Below, one piece after another: positions 4,565 through 57,443 of a stretch of 64,000 nucleotides of DNA. Position 1 is the first letter of the stretch, and each line of letters opens with the position of its first letter. This DNA is from Patescibacteria group bacterium. Its GTDB lineage: Bacteria; Patescibacteriota; Patescibacteriia; UBA9570. The stretch spans positions 2,178 through 66,177 of the forward strand of contig JBAYIY010000002.1 of NCBI GenBank assembly GCA_041665365.1. Direction: 5' to 3'. Under the pieces are notes generated by a model that saw only the letters and a list, made by a program, of their open reading frames with translations, was not told the origin of the DNA and ran no database searches. The position numbers were made by a program, and so were the translations under genes.

Positions 4565-4710
4565 AAGGCCTTTTTCGCGACGGCGCAACGGCAAAAAACT
4601 GCAGTTTATTACGACAGAGTGCAACGACCTGCTTGTGGATAACATTTTTCAGCGACGGCTCACCTACGTTCCTAAGAAGGAACTTCGGGTGAGTAAACTC
4701 TAATGTTGGT
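4565..4710 (+). repeat. Intergenic two-box repeat element, copy A (box1 CGCGACGGCGCAACGGC; box2 TGTGGATAACATTTTTCAGCGACGGC; nested hairpin)
   Basis: About 90% identical to copy B. Contains the perfect DnaA-box nonamer TGTGGATAA and the hairpin CTCACC-tac-GTTCCT-aaga-AGGAAC-ttcg-GGTGAG. Confidence 0.7.
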
Positions 4711-5332: not shown

Positions 5333-5371
5333 TTATAAAATACTAAGTATAATATTTCGTTTTTACAAGAC

Positions 5372-5530
5372 CTTTTTCGCGACGGCGCAACGGCAAAAAA
5401 CCACACTTTATTATGACTGAGTGCAACGACTTGCTTGTGGATAACAATTTTTAGCGACGGCTCACCTACGTTCCTAAGAAGGAACTTCGGATGAGTAAAC
5501 TCTACTACGCTCGTAGGACAGAGCTTCGTA
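5372..5530 (+). repeat. Two-box repeat element, copy B
   Basis: Same architecture as copy A (box1 5377-5393; TGTGGATAA 5436-5444; hairpin). Confidence 0.7.
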
Positions 5531-6473: not shown

Positions 6474-6587
6474 CGTTTAATAAGGTATATACATACTAAT
6501 ACGATGCATACATTTTGTCCATAGTCCACAGCTACTTATCAAGACCATTTTGGAATTTTCTTTGATGCTTCTCAAAAAAATACAATG

Positions 6588-6665
6588 CCGGATAACATTT
6601 TTCAGCGACAGCTCACCTGCGTTCCTAAGAAGGAACTTCGGATGAGTAAACTCTACTACGCCACT
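6588..6665 (+). repeat. Partial repeat element, copy C (degenerate box2 plus hairpin)
   Basis: GCCGGATAACATTTTTCAGCGACAGCTCACCTGCGTTCCTAAGAAGGAACTTCGGATGAG. Confidence 0.6.
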
Positions 6666-6808
6666 TTTTCAAATATACAAAAACGAAAGAAGCTCTTAGT
6701 TAACACGATGTGTAGTCGCGTCAACGTTGAGCTTCGGCAGTACACAGACGACAGCTGGCGAACATTGCTGTTCAACAACCGATCTGGTCTGGTACTGAAT
6801 GTATCTGA

Positions 6809-9313
6809 CTAGCAGGGCGGTGCTGAGGTAGCGGTACCGAGATACCACCACTCGTAGTCGTCGTGACAACCGCCGGCGTAGTAGCCAGAGCAGCTGCCAT
6901 CACAACCTTCGTCCACCGTGCCGTCACAGTTGTTGTCGTTCCAGTCACCCCGTTCTGGTGCGCCCGAGTAGGTAGTTGCATCCCACCAGGCACAGTCGAA
7001 GGAGTCATCGTAGCCGTCGCCGTCCGAATCTGCCGCGCTGGAGCCGCAGACATAGGTTAGCGAACCGGTCGAGTAGTAACTTTCGTAGTCGTCGGTGCAG
7101 CCATCCCAGTAGGCGCCACCGCAACCGTAGTCACAGCTCTCGTCCGTGCTTCCATCACAATCGTTGTCGACCCAGTCGGCCAATTCAGGCGCACCGGGAT
7201 AGATGGACGCACTCCACCAACCACAATCGACAGTATCATCGTAACCGTCGCCGTCGTAGTCGCTGGCAGTGGGCGTACTGCAAGAGCTGCTCGACGCACA
7301 GTCGGAGTCTCCACAGTCCACTAGCCCATCCAGATCATTGTCCATGCCATCGGAACAGTAGAGTTCGGCGCAGGGCACATCGCCCCCAACGCAGTCATCA
7401 TCCGTTCCGTTGCCACAGATCTCTGGTGCTCCATAGTAGATGGCTGTGTTGCTGTCGTTGCAGTCATTTCCACCACAGCCCGTGGCCGTCTGGCCGTCAC
7501 CGTCGATGTCGCAGGAGGTATCGCTCTCGTCGGTGGTGTCACTCGTACTAGTCGTATCGTCCTCATCCATTGGATCGATCGCCATGCCGTTGAGTGATCG
7601 AACCTCTGTACTCGTCCGAACACCGAAGTTTCCGAACAGAATATGAGGCCGGCCGTAGGTTGAACTCAAACCAGTGATCAATTGAGACTGATCCACCTGC
7701 TCTTCGAAGCTGTTGCCGGCATTGCTCCGTGCCAGATACAGAGTTGTACCGTTGGAACGAATCAGATCGGCGTAGGCGTCGAGGTAGTCCAGAGGATAGA
7801 TGGTATAGTCACCATCCGTACCACCGACATCGGTACCCATCACTGCGATGGTGAAGGTACTCGTGCTGTTGTTATAGTGACCAGCTTCAATTTCCACACT
7901 GGAGTCACGTTCGTCGATGCGAATGATCTCATCGCTACCGTCACCATTAGTGTCGGCGACAACGAACTCATCCGTGGGCAATGCCCAACCAGTGCTGATG
8001 TTGGTCACGCTGCCAGAACTGCTCAGACGTTGCCAGGTCAGAGTGCTCCCCGAACCAGCGAAGGCTTCCGCCTCACCGTTGCCGTTGAAGTCGCCAACTA
8101 AGACGACACTACTGGTGGTTCCGAAGCTGGTGCTCCAGGTGACCGCGTCACCGAACCGACCGTTATCGCTGTCGTTGAGAAAGTACTTCCAAGTCAGAGT
8201 GCCGTCGGTGTTGGCGAAGACCAGAATCAGATCCGCGCGCCCATCTCCGTCCACATCATCCAAGAACGCTTTGACCGCTTCACCGGACGTCTTCTTCCAG
8301 CGGGTCTGAGTGTTGAGCTCTCCTTCCCCATTGGACAGGTAGACATTGGTGTAGGTGTAACCAGGCTTGATCCGCACTTGCACCAAGTCATCCCAGCCAT
8401 CGCTATTCATGTCTCCGGAGAGCCAGGACAGAATGGTGGCAGTAGAGCCAGTGTTGGTGTAGGAGAAGTAGTTACCGGACAGTGCAGTATCCTCACCCGA
8501 ACCCGTCACCTCGTAACCGTAGATGTCGAACTTGCCACTGCTGTTAGGTTCGACAGTCATGAGGTGAGTGGTGGTAGTAGTGGAGGTAGTGGCTGAGGAA
8601 GATCCGTCGTTTGTAGATTCGTAGTAGTTGCCTGCAACGTAATCCACAAACTGGATACCTTCCATTTCAACTCCATCAAGCTCACTGGTGTAGCTGTAGC
8701 CGCTGCCGTTGTACTTGATGGAGAAGTGCAGATGGGTACCAGTTGAATCTCCCGTCGTGCCAATCGCACCGAGAATTTCGCCCTGTGCCACGGTCTTGCC
8801 GATGTAGAGCGAAGACGGAATTGAATCCGCAGCGAGGTGGTAGTAGAGAGTGGTATATCCGTCACTGTGGTCGAGCTTGACGTAGCAAGCAAAATGACCT
8901 TCGCTCGCCTTGCCCTGAGTGCAGCCAGTCGTTACCATGTCAATGATCGTGCCAGCGGCGACTGCCACAGCAGGATCACCACTGTAGCGATCTTAGAAGT
9001 CGATGGCATAGTAGCCATTGTTGGCATCAGTATGCCATGAATCGATGCCACCATGTAGAATCTCGGCAACCACACCACCAGCTTCCACGTTGCACCGAAT
9101 GAGATCGCCAGGCTGCATCGGCATCTTGAGCTCGGGACCCGTATAGCCAGTGGCCTTGAGAGAAATACCCGATCGACCAGATGCACTGACATTGTCACCA
9201 CATTCAGCACCCGGCAGTGATGGATCACAATCGCCGAAGCTGCAGGCGACCAGATCGGCGAACCCGAACATCACGAAGAGGCTGATCATGAGGAGGCGGA
9301 TGTACCGTTCCAT
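6809..9313 (-). pseudogene. Secreted M23 (LytM-type) peptidase with FG-GAP repeats and a C-terminal Cys/Asp-rich repeat region. It is interrupted by an in-frame TAA at 8993-8995. It is compositionally foreign (GC-rich).
   Basis: ORFs 8993..9379 and 6809..8968 are in the same frame. The M23 block ...GYYAIDF*DRYSGDPAVAVAAGTIID...STGTHLHFS spans the stop. The region has RBS AGGAG and signal peptide MERYIRLLMISLFVMFGFADLVA. FG-GAP-like DVDGDGRADL/GDFNGNGEAEA/ADTNGDGSDEI repeats are followed by DxDxDG...CxxxDCDD...PGAPE..CDGxDNDCDG repeats. GC is about 55-60% against about 35% in the flanks. Confidence 0.55.
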
Positions 9314-9408
9314 TGGAAGACTCCTGGATTGTGAAGGAACGACTCTAGTCAAGAAGATTCCTGAGCTAGCAGAGCCCATCTAGTTGAAATAGATGGACCG
9401 GTGTTAAA

Positions 9409-10032
9409 TCAGAAATTAAATGTAATAGTAGATATAATCAATTCAACTTGTTTTTTATCTTCTTGTTTAGTGTTATTTGATAATATTGTAAAGTGTGCAT
9501 CTACTAAAGGATAATTATTAACCCAATACTCACTACTAATATCAGAAAAGAGTTCAGTTCCAGATTTTCCTCCTATTATGACCATTTTTTGTTCTAACCC
9601 CGGAACGCCATGGTCAATGTTTCTTTCGGGAAAAATTGTAAGCAGTATTTCCCCTTCCTTTGCTACCTGAACAACAGATACTTTTTTTCCTGGTAAAATC
9701 TTTGACACCAGATCAGTTTCTTGAACAGTTACATTAATGCCCACTGGATATTTAAAACTAAACCCATATTCATCATTCGTGTATGTTAACCAATCACTTG
9801 TATCCACTTCACTCACCTGTTCTGTATTAGTATTCTCATTGGTTACTACACCATTGATATTGTCATTTGAGTCCGTAACAACTACGTTAGTATTATCGTT
9901 TGTTGTATTTGTGTTTACCGTAACTGCATTGGTATTTATATTTGTTTTTTGAGTAGTTGTACAACTAGAGCCAGCTAAAAGTAGTGTGCAGGCAACTAAA
10001 GTGGTTAGTAAAGATAGTTTAGTTTTAAACAT
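9409..10032 (-). CDS. Lipoprotein, paralog A; Asn/Thr-rich linker followed by a conserved C-terminal domain
   Basis: MFKTKLSLLTTLVACTLLLAGSSC (lipobox-like). It shares ...DTSDW.TYTNDEYGFSFKYP with the 10405..11103 gene. Confidence 0.6.
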   Translation of the reverse strand: MFKTKLSLLTTLVACTLLLAGSSCTTTQKTNINTNAVTVNTNTTNDNTNVVVTDSNDNINGVVTNENTNTEQVSEVDTSDWLTYTNDEYGFSFKYPVGINVTVQETDLVSKILPGKKVSVVQVAKEGEILLTIFPERNIDHGVPGLEQKMVIIGGKSGTELFSDISSEYWVNNYPLVDAHFTILSNNTKQEDKKQVELIISTITFNF

Positions 10033-10099
10033 AAATTTAGAGTTAATAATAGTCTATATACTTGTACTATGGTCATAGAATGTTATTTAGTGCAATGAG

Positions 10100-10198
10100 T
10101 ATTCAGCGACGGCGTTAACTATAAAAAACTCAATTTGAGCCTAACATTAGATAAAATAAATAACAGGCGCATGTGGATAACATTTTTTAGCGACGGCT
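10100..10198 (+). repeat. Two-box repeat element, copy D (box1 10104-10114; TGTGGATAA 10172-10180), abutting a 5' stub of the M23 gene
   Basis: TTCAGCGACGGCGTTAAC...65 nt...ATGTGGATAACATTTTTTAGCGACGGCTC. Confidence 0.7.
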
Positions 10199-10300
10199 CT
10201 AAGATACTAATCATGAGGAGACGGATGTACCGTTCCATTGAGAGACTCCTGGATTGTGAAGGAACGACTCTAGTCAAGAATATTCCTGAGCTAGCTGTAC
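10199..10300 (-). repeat. Truncated duplicate (stub) of the M23-peptidase 5' region (promoter/RBS/first 14 codons), copy 1
   Basis: Near-identical to 9283-9372. It encodes MERYIRLLMISLF and then diverges exactly at the repeat-element boundary. Confidence 0.7.
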
Positions 10301-10404
10301 TCCTTCATATTCGTTAGAAATTGTATGAAGGAGTATGTGCTAAATCAAGAAGTAAAATTTCATTGTTCTAGTAAATTTCTGTGATTTATAAGTCATAAGG
10401 TCGT

Positions 10405-11103
10405 TTAAAATGTTAATGAATCTGCTACTTGTAAGAGGTCATCACTTATAGAAACATCTCCACTGATTGTTAAATTATTTTGTTTATCATTATAATTTGG
10501 TATCAATATATGTAGTGTATTAATTTTACTGCCATCAAAATCTGATATATCCTCAGTAACCTTAAGAGCAGGTTTGGTTCCGATAGTTATTTTCTCGACC
10601 GTCATTGTATTAGTTAGATTTCTATGTAGATCTTGCGCCAACTGATCATTTGTTTTTGTAAAATCAACTTTTGTGTAATCGAACCAACTGTTTGCATCAG
10701 ACGCATTTATAGTTTCTAAGCTATTACTTGATATCACCAAACGAGGGTTGCCAATTATGTCTTGCTTAAAATTATTTTCATCTCTAAAATTAATTGTCAA
10801 AAGAAATGGCACAGTATCACCTATCGAAACTTGCACGCTGCCCCACTCTTTTGGATACTTAAAACTAAACCCATATTCATCATTGGTATAAGTTTGCCAA
10901 TCACTAGTATCAATACCACTAACCTGCTCTACATTAGTATTGTCATTACTAACATTATCATTGGTGTTAGTTACAGCTTCAGTATTCACGTTATCGTTAA
11001 TAGTATTTGTATTTGTTTTTTGAGTAGTTGTACAACTAGAACCGACTAAAAGTAGTGTGCTGGCAGCGAAGGTGATTAGTAAAGCTAGTTTAGTTTGAAT
11101 CAT
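10405..11103 (-). CDS. Lipoprotein, paralog B
   Basis: MIQTKLALLITFAASTLLLVGSSCTTTQKTN..., paralogous to 9409..10032. Start chosen at MIQTKL (11103). The upstream promoter cassette is conserved. Confidence 0.6.
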   Translation of the reverse strand: MIQTKLALLITFAASTLLLVGSSCTTTQKTNTNTINDNVNTEAVTNTNDNVSNDNTNVEQVSGIDTSDWQTYTNDEYGFSFKYPKEWGSVQVSIGDTVPFLLTINFRDENNFKQDIIGNPRLVISSNSLETINASDANSWFDYTKVDFTKTNDQLAQDLHRNLTNTMTVEKITIGTKPALKVTEDISDFDGSKINTLHILIPNYNDKQNNLTISGDVSISDDLLQVADSLTF

Positions 11104-11177
11104 AAATTTAGAATTAAATAAATATAGTCTATATACCTGTACTATGGTCATAGAATGTTAGTTAGTGCAATAAGTAA

Positions 11178-11276
11178 CTAACGACGGCGCTAACACTAAA
11201 AAGCTCAATTTTAGCCTAACATTAGGTAAAATAAAATACAAATGTGTGTGGATAACATTTTTCAGCGACGGCTCAA
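11178..11276 (+). repeat. Two-box repeat element, copy E (TGTGGATAA 11247-11255), abutting M23 5' stub copy 2
   Basis: AACGACGGCGCTAAC...TGTGTGGATAACATTTTTCAGCGACGGCTCA. Confidence 0.7.
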
Positions 11277-11375
11277 AGAGGCTGATCATGAGGAGGCGGA
11301 TGTACCGTTCCATTGGAAGACTCCTGGATTGTGAAGGAACGACTCTAGTCAAGAAGATTCCTGAGCTAGCTGTAC
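11277..11375 (-). repeat. Truncated duplicate (stub) of the M23-peptidase 5' region, copy 2
   Basis: Identical to 9287-9372 over about 90 nt, including the AGGAG RBS and codons 1-14. Confidence 0.7.
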
Positions 11376-11509
11376 TCCTTCATATTCATTATAAATTGTA
11401 TGAAGGAGTATGTGCTAAATCAAGAAGTAAAACCTATTAGACACACAATTTTGTTTTAATGATTATATGATTTAATTAGTTATTGATTTATTATTCTGTC
11501 TAATATTAT

Positions 11510-12265
11510 TTATAATGGTTTAGGAATTCCACGTATGATTTTTCTATTAACAGCAATGGAATGATTTTGAATATAAACAAGTAATTGATCATTAGACATA
11601 TACGTTAACTCGTCAATCTCATTAATATCTGGAATGAAATATAACTCACCATCGCTTTCGACGGCCATAATAACCCGTCCTATTAATCGTTGTTGTAAAT
11701 CCTCATATAGCTCCTCATGACCACTAATAATACTACTACAGGTAGGCCCTTCTCCAAAATCTAGGCATGCTAAAGCCTGAATATCTAAATTAGATGCCGG
11801 TGTAACACGAAAATCACCAACAGCTGCTGCTTCCAAAAAAGCAGAATATATGTTTTTTGAACTCAACTTTTGTTTAAAACCGTCTGCTATCCAGTAATAC
11901 CTGTTTTTTACTTTATAAAACCCATCTGGTAAATATCTATTGATTATCGGTAAACCGTTGGCAGTATTTATCCAATACATTTTACCAGAGTGTTGTGCGC
12001 GTAAAATAACTTTTCCTTCTAAGATATTAAGTATGGGATCACAAAGTCTACCTAGCGGAGTTGTGACAGCATCACTGGGTACATTTTCGTTTGCAGTGTA
12101 ACAATGACTATTCAATAATTCTTTATAAACAGATTCACTAACACCAATAATATTAGGGGTAAGATTCACCACGGTCATAGCGTTTGTTAAAGACGGTAGT
12201 ACCAACGTAAGTACTAATAAACTAACAACTATAGTAGAGATAGTTATGTGTTTAGATCTAGTCAT
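11510..12265 (-). CDS. Secreted hypothetical protein
   Basis: Signal-peptide-like N-terminus MTRSKHITISTIVVSLLVLTLVLPSLTNA. It shares the same upstream promoter cassette as the lipoprotein paralogs. Confidence 0.5.
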   Translation of the reverse strand: MTRSKHITISTIVVSLLVLTLVLPSLTNAMTVVNLTPNIIGVSESVYKELLNSHCYTANENVPSDAVTTPLGRLCDPILNILEGKVILRAQHSGKMYWINTANGLPIINRYLPDGFYKVKNRYYWIADGFKQKLSSKNIYSAFLEAAAVGDFRVTPASNLDIQALACLDFGEGPTCSSIISGHEELYEDLQQRLIGRVIMAVESDGELYFIPDINEIDELTYMSNDQLLVYIQNHSIAVNRKIIRGIPKPL

Positions 12266-12407
12266 AAATTTAGAGTTAATAATAGTCTATATACTTGTAT
12301 ATATGGTCATAGAATGTTAGTTAGCGCAATAAGTATCCGGCGACGGCTCAATTGTCTATCATTACCCCCCACGTTTTAACGTATGCCCGCCTGCCGATAG
12401 GCAGGGG

Positions 12408-12992
12408 TTATTTTTTTGTGGTGTGGTCGTCTACTTCATGTAAGGCTATACCTCGTTCCTGAAAAATTCTATCTCTAATGATGAGACCTAAAATTGGATA
12501 AATCTCAAGCATGTTCATACCAATAGAAAAAGCGTGAGTTTTTATCTCATTTTGTTCGTCAAGCGTGAATATTTTATCAAAATTATTTCCAGCTACATCT
12601 AGTGCTACTGTTTGAATGTCGTAAGGATTCGTGGGAGCCTTACTTTCGACTGCTTGTTTAATATCCGTCCAATGATTGTTTACTTTTACTTCAGCCGATA
12701 TGGCTTGAGCAATTTCTGCTCCTTTGGTGGTTAAACTAATTGGGCTATGGGATTTAATGGTACTTAAGTGTGCTTGATAAAGTAGATCTGAAGTAGCCTG
12801 AATTTTTGCTATATTTGAATTTATTGCATCAATTTTTACATCAAATTTGTCACTCTTTCCCTCAAAATCTTTATATGCCTTCACCCAACCACCACTTTTA
12901 TAAGCTAGCCAAAAAGTTAGTATTAAAATAAGAACAAGCACGAATACGGCACTATTTAACTGTTGAATTAAAGCTAGAAATATTGCTTCCAT
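12408..12992 (-). CDS. Membrane-anchored hypothetical protein
   Basis: N-terminal TM segment AVFVLVLILILTFWLAY. Confidence 0.45.
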   Translation of the reverse strand: MEAIFLALIQQLNSAVFVLVLILILTFWLAYKSGGWVKAYKDFEGKSDKFDVKIDAINSNIAKIQATSDLLYQAHLSTIKSHSPISLTTKGAEIAQAISAEVKVNNHWTDIKQAVESKAPTNPYDIQTVALDVAGNNFDKIFTLDEQNEIKTHAFSIGMNMLEIYPILGLIIRDRIFQERGIALHEVDDHTTKK

Positions 12993-56720: not shown

Positions 56721-57443
56721 TTATGGTTGATAAGTGTTTAATAGTGCTTTGGTATATTTCATTAGCCCGTAATTATACTGATACTGCATGCGCATCGGGC
56801 CAAGCAACGCCATGGTGCCGGCCACATTGGCAGCACGATAGGGTGTCACCAACACGCTACAATACCGGCTAATAGGATTATCACTCCCGACATAAAACGT
56901 AATATCATCATCTGGCTCGGTGCTGTGCAATTTCATCATGACATCATCTAAGTGATCAATTAATTGAGTAAAGCGTAACATCTCATTAACGCTCTTAAAT
57001 TCTGGCTTACTAAATAAGTTTGAAATACCAGTATAAAAGAAACTACTCCGGTTTAAACTAATCAGTATCGCCTCTTGTGATTTCGCCGCCACGCCTTTCA
57101 TGACAGTTTTAATCATCCCCTCTGTGCCTTGATCGGACACCACTTTGGTTAATTGTCTTAACTCTTCTTGGCTAGCTGTATCCAATTCGTTTTTGCTATC
57201 CAAGAATTCTTCCAAAAAATAGCGATACCCTTGTTCGGTTGGTATCCGCCCGGCGGATGTATGCGGCTGAATAATCAGGCCAGCGTCTTCTAATTCCTTC
57301 ATTTCATTGCGAATTGTCGCTGAAGATAGATCTAAACCCAACTTATCCACAAGCAATTGTGAAGGAACCGGTTTGGCCTCAACGCCGTATTCTTCAATAA
57401 TCCCCAATAAAAGCGCTTGTTTTCTATCAGATAAGGCAGCCAT
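56721..57443 (-). CDS. hrcA: Heat-inducible transcription repressor HrcA
   Basis: MAALSDRKQALLLGIIEEY...LSSATIRNEMKELEDAGLI. Start placed at MAALS because the CIRCE element lies immediately upstream. Confidence 0.85.
   Translation of the reverse strand: MAALSDRKQALLLGIIEEYGVEAKPVPSQLLVDKLGLDLSSATIRNEMKELEDAGLIIQPHTSAGRIPTEQGYRYFLEEFLDSKNELDTASQEELRQLTKVVSDQGTEGMIKTVMKGVAAKSQEAILISLNRSSFFYTGISNLFSKPEFKSVNEMLRFTQLIDHLDDVMMKLHSTEPDDDITFYVGSDNPISRYCSVLVTPYRAANVAGTMALLGPMRMQYQYNYGLMKYTKALLNTYQP

Follow-up and report, generated by a model that had tools for sequence, protein, structure and literature searches.

In a 64,000-nucleotide (nt) stretch of patescibacterial DNA (hereafter the window, to which all coordinates refer unless a contig is named), a GC-rich gene for a secreted hydrolase of the M23 peptidase family stands at the end of an array of three genes for secreted proteins, and all the genes of this region lie on the minus strand. 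The start of the M23 gene, together with its leader, is found twice more within the array, as two truncated copies (stubs) placed between the secreted-protein genes. Here, we describe the stubs, the stem-loops that precede them and the corresponding loci of related genomes, and we argue that the stubs are probably the remains of hydrolase genes in an array that grew by tandem duplication. The genes and the three copies of the hydrolase start are as follows.

6809-9313, minus strand: M23 / FG-GAP / MopE lipoprotein gene (Pfam matches), 55.6% GC, with its ATG at 9313-9311
9276-9370, minus strand: copy 1 of a 95-nt segment, with the genuine M23 5' leader, a GGAG ribosome-binding site (RBS), the ATG at 9313 and 13 codons
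9409-10032, minus strand: gene 1, a PsbP_2-like lipoprotein of 207 residues whose C-terminal half is unrelated to gene 2
10201-10295, minus strand: stub 2, a truncated M23 5' end 93% identical to copy 1, with an ATG at 10238 and a 39-codon open reading frame (ORF)
10405-11103, minus strand: gene 2, a PsbP_2-like lipoprotein of 232 residues (Pfam match, protein comparison)
11276-11370, minus strand: stub 3, a truncated M23 5' end 100% identical to copy 1, with an ATG at 11313 and a 51-codon ORF
11510-12265, minus strand: gene 3, a secreted protein of 251 residues whose similarity to genes 1 and 2 is limited to the leader and the 5 initial codons

The stubs and the hydrolase gene

Read along the minus strand, the array opens with a solo box and a leader ahead of gene 3. 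A stem-loop, stub 3, a box that we call box2', the sequence TTATCCACA, a second box (box1') and a leader then precede gene 2, while a stem-loop, stub 2, box2', box1' and a leader precede gene 1, and a hairpin of differing sequence leads into the genuine M23 start. A preliminary description of this locus had claimed that a segment with the M23 start is present three times. The 95-nt direct repeat formed by copy 1 and the two stubs bears this out, although the coordinates first given were a few bases off, and a 30-nt core of the segment occurs exactly 3 times in the window against 0 expected. The same description counted 14 shared codons; a shared coding start does exist, but it consists of 12 full codons plus 2 nt, which encode the 13 residues MERYIRLLMISLF. 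The identity of the stubs stops at 10201 and 11276, where the extended box TGAGCCGTCGC abuts the stub in both units, in agreement with the earlier view that each stub terminates where box2 begins. The GCCGTCGC box comes directly after each stub, and the 8-mer GCGACGGC is located at 10190-10197 and 11265-11272. With a GC content of 44-50%, in surroundings of 31-34% and next to an M23 gene of 56%, the stubs have the look of hydrolase DNA in a GC-poor background. Since the stub ORFs are in inconsistent frames and terminate 58-87 nt ahead of the lipoprotein ATG, we rejected the idea that they are fused or translationally coupled to the lipoprotein genes.

To judge from their sequence, the stubs are truncated copies of the native 5' end of an M23-family gene, because M23 orthologs elsewhere start with MERY or MERI behind the same 5' leader. 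This is the case for the orthologs P0002, P0003, P0005 and P0006, which have in common a leader of the form GCTAGCTCAGGAAT...TCGYTCCTTCACAA...ATGGAACGG, and MERYIRLL... is the native N-terminus of the GC-rich hydrolase family. The converse arrangement, with a native stub and an M23 gene captured behind it, was rejected, as the signal peptide extends across the junction and orthologs conserve the N-terminus in full. In the window, the Peptidase_M23 domain (PF01551) scores 55 bits against a Pfam cut-off of 28.7, and the product has a lipoprotein-type signal peptide with LVAC at its end. In a protein search, M23 orthologs without interruption were found at identities of 38-52%, and one of these belongs to Candidatus Kerfeldbacteria; the best non-self match was 52% identical, and an intermediate sister genome was not found in the protein database. 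A metagenome scan with an alignment of the M23 N-terminus yielded only distant relatives, at 28-41% identity.

The window copy of the hydrolase gene is itself damaged. An in-frame TAA at 8993-8995 (minus strand) lies inside the M23 catalytic domain, in place of an Asp (in IDFDDRY) that every ortholog has, and divides the gene into ORFs of 106 and 719 codons. The gene is probably a recently inactivated pseudogene, and the TAA fits a lineage in which hydrolase copies decay. The GC contrast between the gene and its surroundings, in turn, appears to be a long-standing, gene-specific compositional anomaly. We see no sign of recent transfer, because the hydrolase orthologs of five close relatives (L009, L011, L021, L023 and L024) have a GC content of 55-60% between flanks of 33-43%, and recent horizontal transfer of the M23 gene was rejected on these grounds.

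A tandem structure drawn from metagenomes could be a product of assembly, a worry that had been raised for this locus. Two metagenome assemblies from different samples were compared, ENA ERZ27249449 and JGI 3300037810. The JGI contig (L002), which is independent, is colinear with and base-identical to 6489-12593 except for one N-gap, and it also contains the TAA within the M23 gene; a third record, an NCBI metagenome-assembled genome named 'Patescibacteria group bacterium', carries the same proteins. The layout is therefore not an artefact of a single assembly. It is true that the sources are short-read metagenome assemblies and that the repeats measure 95-300 nt, a setting in which a repeat could be mis-joined or collapsed. 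However, the sole perfect repeat is 95 nt long, shorter than the assembler k-mer (whose size was read from the k141 contig name), the longer repeats are only 82-93% identical and hence resolvable, and analogous arrays are present in unrelated assemblies. We consider an assembly artefact to be scarcely credible.

Units 2 and 3 follow each other head-to-tail with a period of 1075 nt and have the same stub/box junction. Their alignment runs from 11432/10357 to 10852/9745 (about 580 nt) with sharp edges: the homology begins about 10 nt before the stem-loop and finishes just past a motif coding for NDEYGFSFKYP. Identity is about 82-91% per 100-nt block across the stem-loop, the stub and the promoter module, and it drops to about 60-65% over an indel-rich stretch in an N/T-rich linker. 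Genes 1 and 2, both with weak PsbP_2 matches in Pfam, are accordingly 65% identical over their first 95 residues and without similarity beyond. Because the shared block has such sharp edges, the two genes represent one constant 5' module joined to unrelated C-terminal domains. Gene 2 is a full-length ortholog (63-66% identity) of the lipoprotein adjoining the M23 gene in L021, and the lipoproteins of L009 and L021 form the same kind of mosaic, with a similar N-terminal part and an unrelated remainder. The family thus combines a constant 5' module (promoter, signal peptide, N/T-rich linker and EYGFSFKYP) with variable C-terminal domains. Gene 3 is a different case: over its last 137 residues it matches the C-terminus of a 382-residue PsbP_2-like protein in L026, at 39% identity. 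The genes had been described as tandem lipoprotein paralogs, which applies to genes 1 and 2 but not to gene 3 over its length. A search of genome contigs with gene 2 gave weak motif matches only.

A stem-loop and leader ahead of the hydrolase start

Each stub is preceded, in the gene sense, by a perfect 12-bp inverted repeat, TACTCCTTCATA-N14-TATGAAGGAGTA, which is found at 10298-10335 and 11373-11410, as had been reported, and nowhere else in the window. The M23 gene was said to lack this repeat. As to the sequence this is correct, but the gene has a hairpin of its own at the equivalent position. The three structures are listed below.

9373-9399, minus strand: inner hairpin upstream of the M23 gene, GGUCCAUCUA / UAGAUGGGCU, -12.8 kcal/mol, z -3.9
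10296-10357, minus strand: stem-loop of unit 2, with the 10298-10335 repeat as inner helix, -17.0 kcal/mol, z -6.5
11371-11432, minus strand: stem-loop of unit 3, with the 11373-11410 repeat as inner helix, -16.1 kcal/mol, z -5.5

When nine such regions were folded together with RNAalifold, a two-tier stem-loop was obtained. Its outer helix of 9 bp pairs a conserved TGATTTAGC with GCTAGCTCA, and its inner helix of 11 bp varies in sequence from locus to locus. In total, 97% of the cells were paired, compared with 81% in shuffles and 32-45% when the partners were slid, and none of 500 shuffles reached the observed pairing score. Compensatory changes, affecting both sides, were seen in 10 of the 11 inner pairs (double changes in 31 cells), and the individual hairpins are stable, at -9.5 to -17 kcal/mol. 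At the M23 gene the outer helix reaches to about 9412 and takes in the TGA stop of gene 1, with a covariance-model match at 9291-9414. In unit 2 the outer helix is again TGATTTAGC / GCTAGCTCA, followed by about 10 nt of additional shared sequence. The stem-loops of units 2 and 3 differ at three positions, all in the loop, and their stems are intact. The M23 hairpin is of a sequence type common to L011, L024 and L026; the hairpins of units 2 and 3 resemble those of L009 and L023.

These observations speak against the proposal that the inverted repeat is a candidate operator. Inner-helix sequences are unrelated between orthologous loci while their pairing is kept, which points to selection on base-pairing rather than on a protein-binding sequence, and we rejected the operator for this reason. 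The 12-bp repeat is the variable inner helix of an intercistronic two-tier stem-loop, and its covariation argues for a function as folded RNA or single-stranded DNA. It would most likely act in RNA, through 3'-end formation, through processing or stabilisation of the lipoprotein transcript, or by attenuating read-through into the hydrolase gene. A scan for a U-tract or intrinsic terminator found none at 9371-9412, 10296-10357 or 11371-11432, where the stems are followed by GGAAUCUUCUUGAC. Because the U-tract is absent, the stem-loop is not a canonical intrinsic terminator.

The wider context of the stem-loop is conserved as well. Between the two genes we find, in this order, the lipoprotein stop inside TGATTTAGCAC, the hairpin, GCTAGCTCAGGAAT, 15-18 nt, TCGYTCCTTCACAA, the RBS and ATGGAACGG. 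In L009, L011, L023, L024, L026 and the window this intergenic DNA is much better conserved than the proteins, and the outer helix and the next 60 nt keep their sequence across proteins of just 38-52% identity; more divergent versions of the stop-to-leader stretch are present in L021, L025 and L028. The covariance model, which was built on these regions, gave untrained matches upstream of the hydrolase genes of L025 (31 bits), L027 (90 bits) and L028 (59 bits), and weak matches upstream of distant M23 relatives in L018 and L016. Further copies of the stem-loop were not found by the model in the window. The stem-loop had no family match in Rfam, a search of the whole window returned tRNA only, and the sole match at 9200-12500 was a chance-level internal ribosome entry site (21 bits against a gathering score of 44.5). 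Stem-loop and leader together form a conserved and so far undescribed element that is common to M23 and CHAP hydrolase genes.

Some further sequences of this region were considered. A sigma-70-like TTGATT-N17-TACAAT overlaps the stem-loop in both units. Promoter-like matches are as frequent as chance predicts (15 observed, 15.1 expected) and the -10 (TACAAT) situated in the loop is not conserved in orthologs, so we keep a sigma-70 promoter within the inverted repeat as a possibility only. An extracytoplasmic-function (ECF)-type pattern, GGAAT-N15-18-CG(T/C)(T/A), was spotted by eye in the conserved leader, and we make no promoter claim for it. A tRNA-like origin of GCTAGCTCAGG was rejected, as neither ARAGORN nor Rfam found anything there.

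Relics in related genomes and the origin of the stubs

The arrangement at the end of the array is widespread among relatives: the hydrolase gene is immediately preceded by a PsbP-like lipoprotein gene in L009, L011, L021, L023, L024, L025, L026 and L028, with a CHAP domain in place of M23 in the terminal hydrolase of L026. Relics of hydrolase starts between tandem lipoprotein genes are found in the window and in three other contigs (L011, L026 and L028), which represent at least 4 assemblies; no relic was found between the tandem family members of L021 and L009. For copy number, the closest syntenic relative is L025, which is syntenic via MurE, M24, SSB and asparaginase and has about 70% identity in housekeeping proteins. 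It has one lipoprotein gene where the window has three genes, so that copy number does vary between relatives, a point that the preliminary description had raised.

The relics themselves are diverse. In the covariance model, against which real copies score about 100 bits, the degenerate relic of L011 (Kerfeldbacteria) reaches 36.5 bits; it reads MERYFRLL..., has a 60-nt insertion in its leader and is about 65% identical there (by eye). L026 has two relics. The first is M23-like, with GTG for ATG and the GCTAGCTCAGGAAT (GCTAGC motif) lost, and scores 21 bits, while the second, with 23 codons, matches the beginning of the CHAP gene that ends the array. After each of the two comes the same GCGCCGTCGC box, and by eye the promoter modules of L026 appear far better conserved than its stubs. 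The relic of L028 (60 bits) is an 89-codon ORF of 52% GC with a MERY-like signal peptide; the terminal M23 gene of this contig starts with MKWFKR and belongs to a different subfamily. In L027, an M23 gene is cut at codon 88. Across genomes, the relics measure about 9-14, 23 or 85-88 codons, their junctions differ, and the distance from junction to box is 0-2 nt in some genomes versus about 8 nt in others.

One gene next to these relics deserves a separate mention. In the second lipoprotein paralog of L011 (9291-9878 of that contig), the signal peptide is not preceded by any in-frame ATG, GTG or TTG, and the ATG of the L011 relic (9240) is one frame off this paralog; a frameshift, a pseudogene or a sequencing error could account for it.

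With a probability of about 0.7, we favour an explanation by birth-and-death evolution: tandem duplications within the gene array would have left hydrolase gene starts behind, and the stubs would be their relics. The usual module of this Kerfeldbacteria-like clade comprises a PsbP-like lipoprotein gene, the conserved stem-loop, a conserved leader (about 60 nt) and a GC-rich gene for a secreted peptidoglycan hydrolase of the M23 or CHAP type. The array shows a head-to-tail duplication of this module or of its lipoprotein gene and hydrolase start, and each added unit thereby ends in a stem-loop, a leader and the first hydrolase codons. Where the whole module was copied, the redundant hydrolase body would have been deleted later. 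Once two units were present, unequal crossing-over could have added others with an identical junction, and gene conversion may keep parts of them identical, such as stub 3 and the real start (95 of 95 nt). The stubs retain a hydrolase-type leader, RBS and ATG and may still supply transcription or a short upstream ORF, although nothing described here requires either. That junctions and relic types differ speaks against a site-specific process and in favour of the loss of whole hydrolase copies, and the relics of L026 and L028 whose type is unlike that of the terminal hydrolase favour duplication of the whole module followed by deletion.

Several points weigh against this explanation or parts of it. 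Stub 3 is 100% identical to the real start, yet the neighbouring promoter modules are only 82-84% identical, which needs either recent gene conversion or selection on the stub. Both 12-bp stems are intact and all 3 differences fall in the loop, a hint that selection still acts on the relic stem-loops. In the L011 relic, the ATG and the first 9 codons are better preserved than the leader. The short M23-type relics (those of the window, of L011 and stub 1 of L026) all end within signal-peptide codons, which may go back to a single ancient origin or to a breakpoint that is preferred, and between CTCCTC and the box the three differ too much in sequence to reveal a common ancestral junction. Within the window, partial duplication is indistinguishable from full duplication followed by deletion. 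Finally, the RNA role of the stem-loop is one that we infer from the modelled structure.

Much of this could also be read as a sign that the relics are kept because they function. They would then be exapted regulatory modules rather than neutral scars, each providing the next lipoprotein gene with a hydrolase-type control region (stem-loop, leader and possibly a promoter) and a short upstream ORF, so that the members of the array are co-regulated with the hydrolase. The near-identity of the stubs (100% and 93%) next to more divergent promoter modules, the intact stems with substitutions confined to the loops, the sigma-70-like sequence over the stem-loop in both units, the RBS and ATG kept in the window stubs, in L011 and in stub 2 of L026, and the recurrence of relics in four contigs are what such a function would predict. 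On the other hand, relics are visibly decaying in relatives, as seen in the insertion of L011 and the 21 bits of stub 1 in L026, where the promoter modules seem much better conserved than the stubs. The promoter-like matches are at chance level, with a -10 that orthologs do not conserve, the stub ORFs stop well before the lipoprotein ATG in inconsistent frames, and L021 and L009 have tandem family members without any stub. We regard retained function as unlikely, though well short of negligible.

The preliminary description had instead suggested that units of the form repeat element, promoter and secreted-protein gene are inserted into the 5' end of an M23 gene by a dedicated cassette mechanism, which in its integron-like version would use the 12-bp repeat as an operator or recombination site. 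Every unit does close with a hairpin of conserved flanks and variable centre, a layout like that of attC; the stub/box junction is identical in the two units of the window and likewise in the two of L026, and the short M23-type relics all stop within the signal-peptide codons. However, the called genes, surveyed with Pfam to a distance of about 9 kb in one direction and 10 kb in the other, yielded no integrase or other recombinase domain, the attC core (RYYYAAC/GTTRRRY) is not matched by the outer helix TGATTTAGC/GCTAGCTCA, and the units have promoter modules of their own, with a repeated block that runs about 500 nt past the hairpin. Junctions vary between genomes (codon 13, 23 or about 85-88; 0-2 or about 8 nt from the box), some paralogs are stub-less, a common junction within one genome follows simply from unequal crossing-over, and the unconserved hairpin sequence argues against an operator. 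Cassette insertion of this kind is thus very improbable. Since the DNA of the stem-loop and leader is conserved far better than the neighbouring proteins, it is tempting to speculate that the two serve as a homology handle or recombination hotspot, with the NDEYGFSFKYP-coding motif as the other handle, in a cassette-style system of lipoprotein diversity where the stubs are working junctions and possibly internal promoters. If true, episymbionts with reduced genomes would build, shuffle and prune variable arrays of PsbP-like surface lipoproteins before a cell-wall hydrolase; we hold this idea to be doubtful.

Promoter modules, known parallels and meaning of the array

The conserved promoter cassette of the preliminary description is found again as a promoter/leader block shared within a duplicated array of secreted-protein genes, with a conserved leader before all three downstream genes (10017-10113, 11088-11188 and 12250-12347).

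10033-10200, minus strand: promoter/leader module of gene 1, with box2' GAGCCGTCGC, TTATCCACA, about 60 nt, box1' CGCCGTCGC and a leader of about 75 nt
11104-11275, minus strand: promoter/leader module of gene 2, with box2', TTATCCACA, box1' and leader, 82-84% identical to the gene 1 module
12266-12347, minus strand: leader of gene 3 with a single ('solo') GCCGTCGC box (sequence comparison), whose left flank is box2'-like and whose right flank is box1'-like

The shared leader contains a small palindrome, CTATGACCATAG, at 10068-10085, 11143-11160 and 12302-12319, with CTATGAACATAG at about 7685-7700 of L026. Kept between distant genomes, this palindrome is a better candidate for an operator of the lipoprotein genes than the 12-bp repeat. 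In relatives, the lipoprotein leaders carry GGCGTCCACC ... GGACGTT and then a T-run (L009 1360-1440, L021 2650-2735, L011 8320-8400), and that of L011 has in addition an alternative partner, GGTGGA; in sequence this arrangement looks like a terminator/antiterminator (attenuator).

The boxes extend beyond the array. GC-rich, near-palindromic boxes (GCGCCGTCGC) occur in pairs 70-95 nt apart in AT-rich intergenic DNA, where they flank the presumed promoters of unrelated genes. The box 8-mer is found 13 times in the window against 0.5 expected, at 4577/4652, 5379/5454, 10106/10190, 11181/11265, 12340 (solo), 13722/13817 and 63116/63185, and a further box module lies just past the window start (L001 20505-20619). 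The pairs are also kept in related genomes (L021 8162/8236; L025 4475/4550; L026 5448/5521, 7579/7654 and 8682/8757; L029 4967/5042), including the region upstream of the orthologous asparaginase gene, and they are likely binding sites of a clade-specific regulator. The perfect DnaA-box consensus TTATCCACA is present 5 times against 0.8 expected in the window, at 4634-4642, 5436-5444, 10172-10180, 11247-11255 (minus strand) and 57343-57351, and four of these directly adjoin box2 of a paired-box module; TTATCCAC adjoins the presumed -35 upstream of lipoprotein genes in L009, L011, L021 and L026. An intergenic repeat of 138 nt (4565-4702 and 5367-5504, 92.8% identical) consists of box1, a spacer, box2 and a strong hairpin, CTCACCTACGTTCCTAAGAAGGAACTTCGGGTGAG, and a partial copy of it (box2 and hairpin) is located at 6590-6661, just downstream of the M23 gene.

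Among known systems, the locus comes closest to an ordinary tandem gene array with truncated relics, of which it is a new instance. Like other tandem segmental duplications, it has head-to-tail units with a fixed period (1075 nt between units 2 and 3), one novel junction present in both added units, truncated copies of a neighbouring gene at the unit boundary, partial homogenisation alongside partial divergence, and relic decay in relatives. It differs in that the relic is always the 5' end of a gene of another class, the hydrolase, and recurs in several related genomes, and in that the paralogs are mosaics of a constant 5' module and unrelated C-terminal domains rather than simple diverged duplicates. 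A comparable mosaic is the 'upstream homology box' (UHB) family of Borrelia lipoproteins (ospE/ospF/erp; Marconi et al. 1996, as cited in PMC10016077), in which, according to the account given in PMC10016077, paralogs share a conserved upstream region and signal peptide, differ in their mature parts, and have recombination implicated in their history. There is no sequence relationship between the two, and we note a resemblance rather than membership. The UHB genes sit on cp32 prophage plasmids, in contrast to the chromosomal tandem array of the window, and we know of no neighbouring-gene stubs or conserved stem-loop among them.

Orphan toxin/immunity modules downstream of cdiA or rhs also form series of variable modules, each after a short conserved coding fragment, which can provide the homology for recombining with the complete gene. 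There, however, the fragment comes from the interior of the very gene whose tip is swapped, whereas in the window it is the 5' end of a gene standing at the far end of the array, and a stub that recombined with the real start would do no more than remove the genes in between. With integron attC sites, whose cores read RYYYAAC ... GTTRRRY, the array has in common a structured element on the 3' side of every gene, in which the outer pairing is conserved and the inner stem varies and covaries; the lack of an integrase within the 9-10 kb flanks, the lack of such cores, the units' own promoters and the extension of the repeat far beyond the hairpin set it apart. Finally, the element resembles intercistronic mRNA stem-loops (stabilisers of the repetitive extragenic palindromic type, RNase III sites, partial terminators) in being a stable hairpin of about 20 bp, in two stacked helices, that comes right after the upstream stop and before the next cistron and is conserved in structure rather than in sequence. 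Unlike these, it has no U-tract, keeps the sequence of its outer helix and of the next 60 nt, and matches no Rfam family.

The locus is probably an ordinary duplication scar, and its description yields, as a by-product, a conserved, covarying stem-loop and leader in Kerfeldbacteria-like Patescibacteria. For annotation, this means that stub ORFs of 39-89 codons should not be called genes. The presence of the stem-loop and leader before both M23 and CHAP genes makes them, as modelled, a candidate for post-transcriptional control of enzymes that could damage the cell producing them. The genomes of Patescibacteria are small and the cells presumably live in attachment to a host cell, a lifestyle for which secreted lipoproteins and peptidoglycan hydrolases are likely tools. 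The locus illustrates how a set of such secreted proteins can grow, by the duplication of a module, the decay of the extra hydrolases to relics, and the combination of a constant 5' module with varied C-terminal domains.

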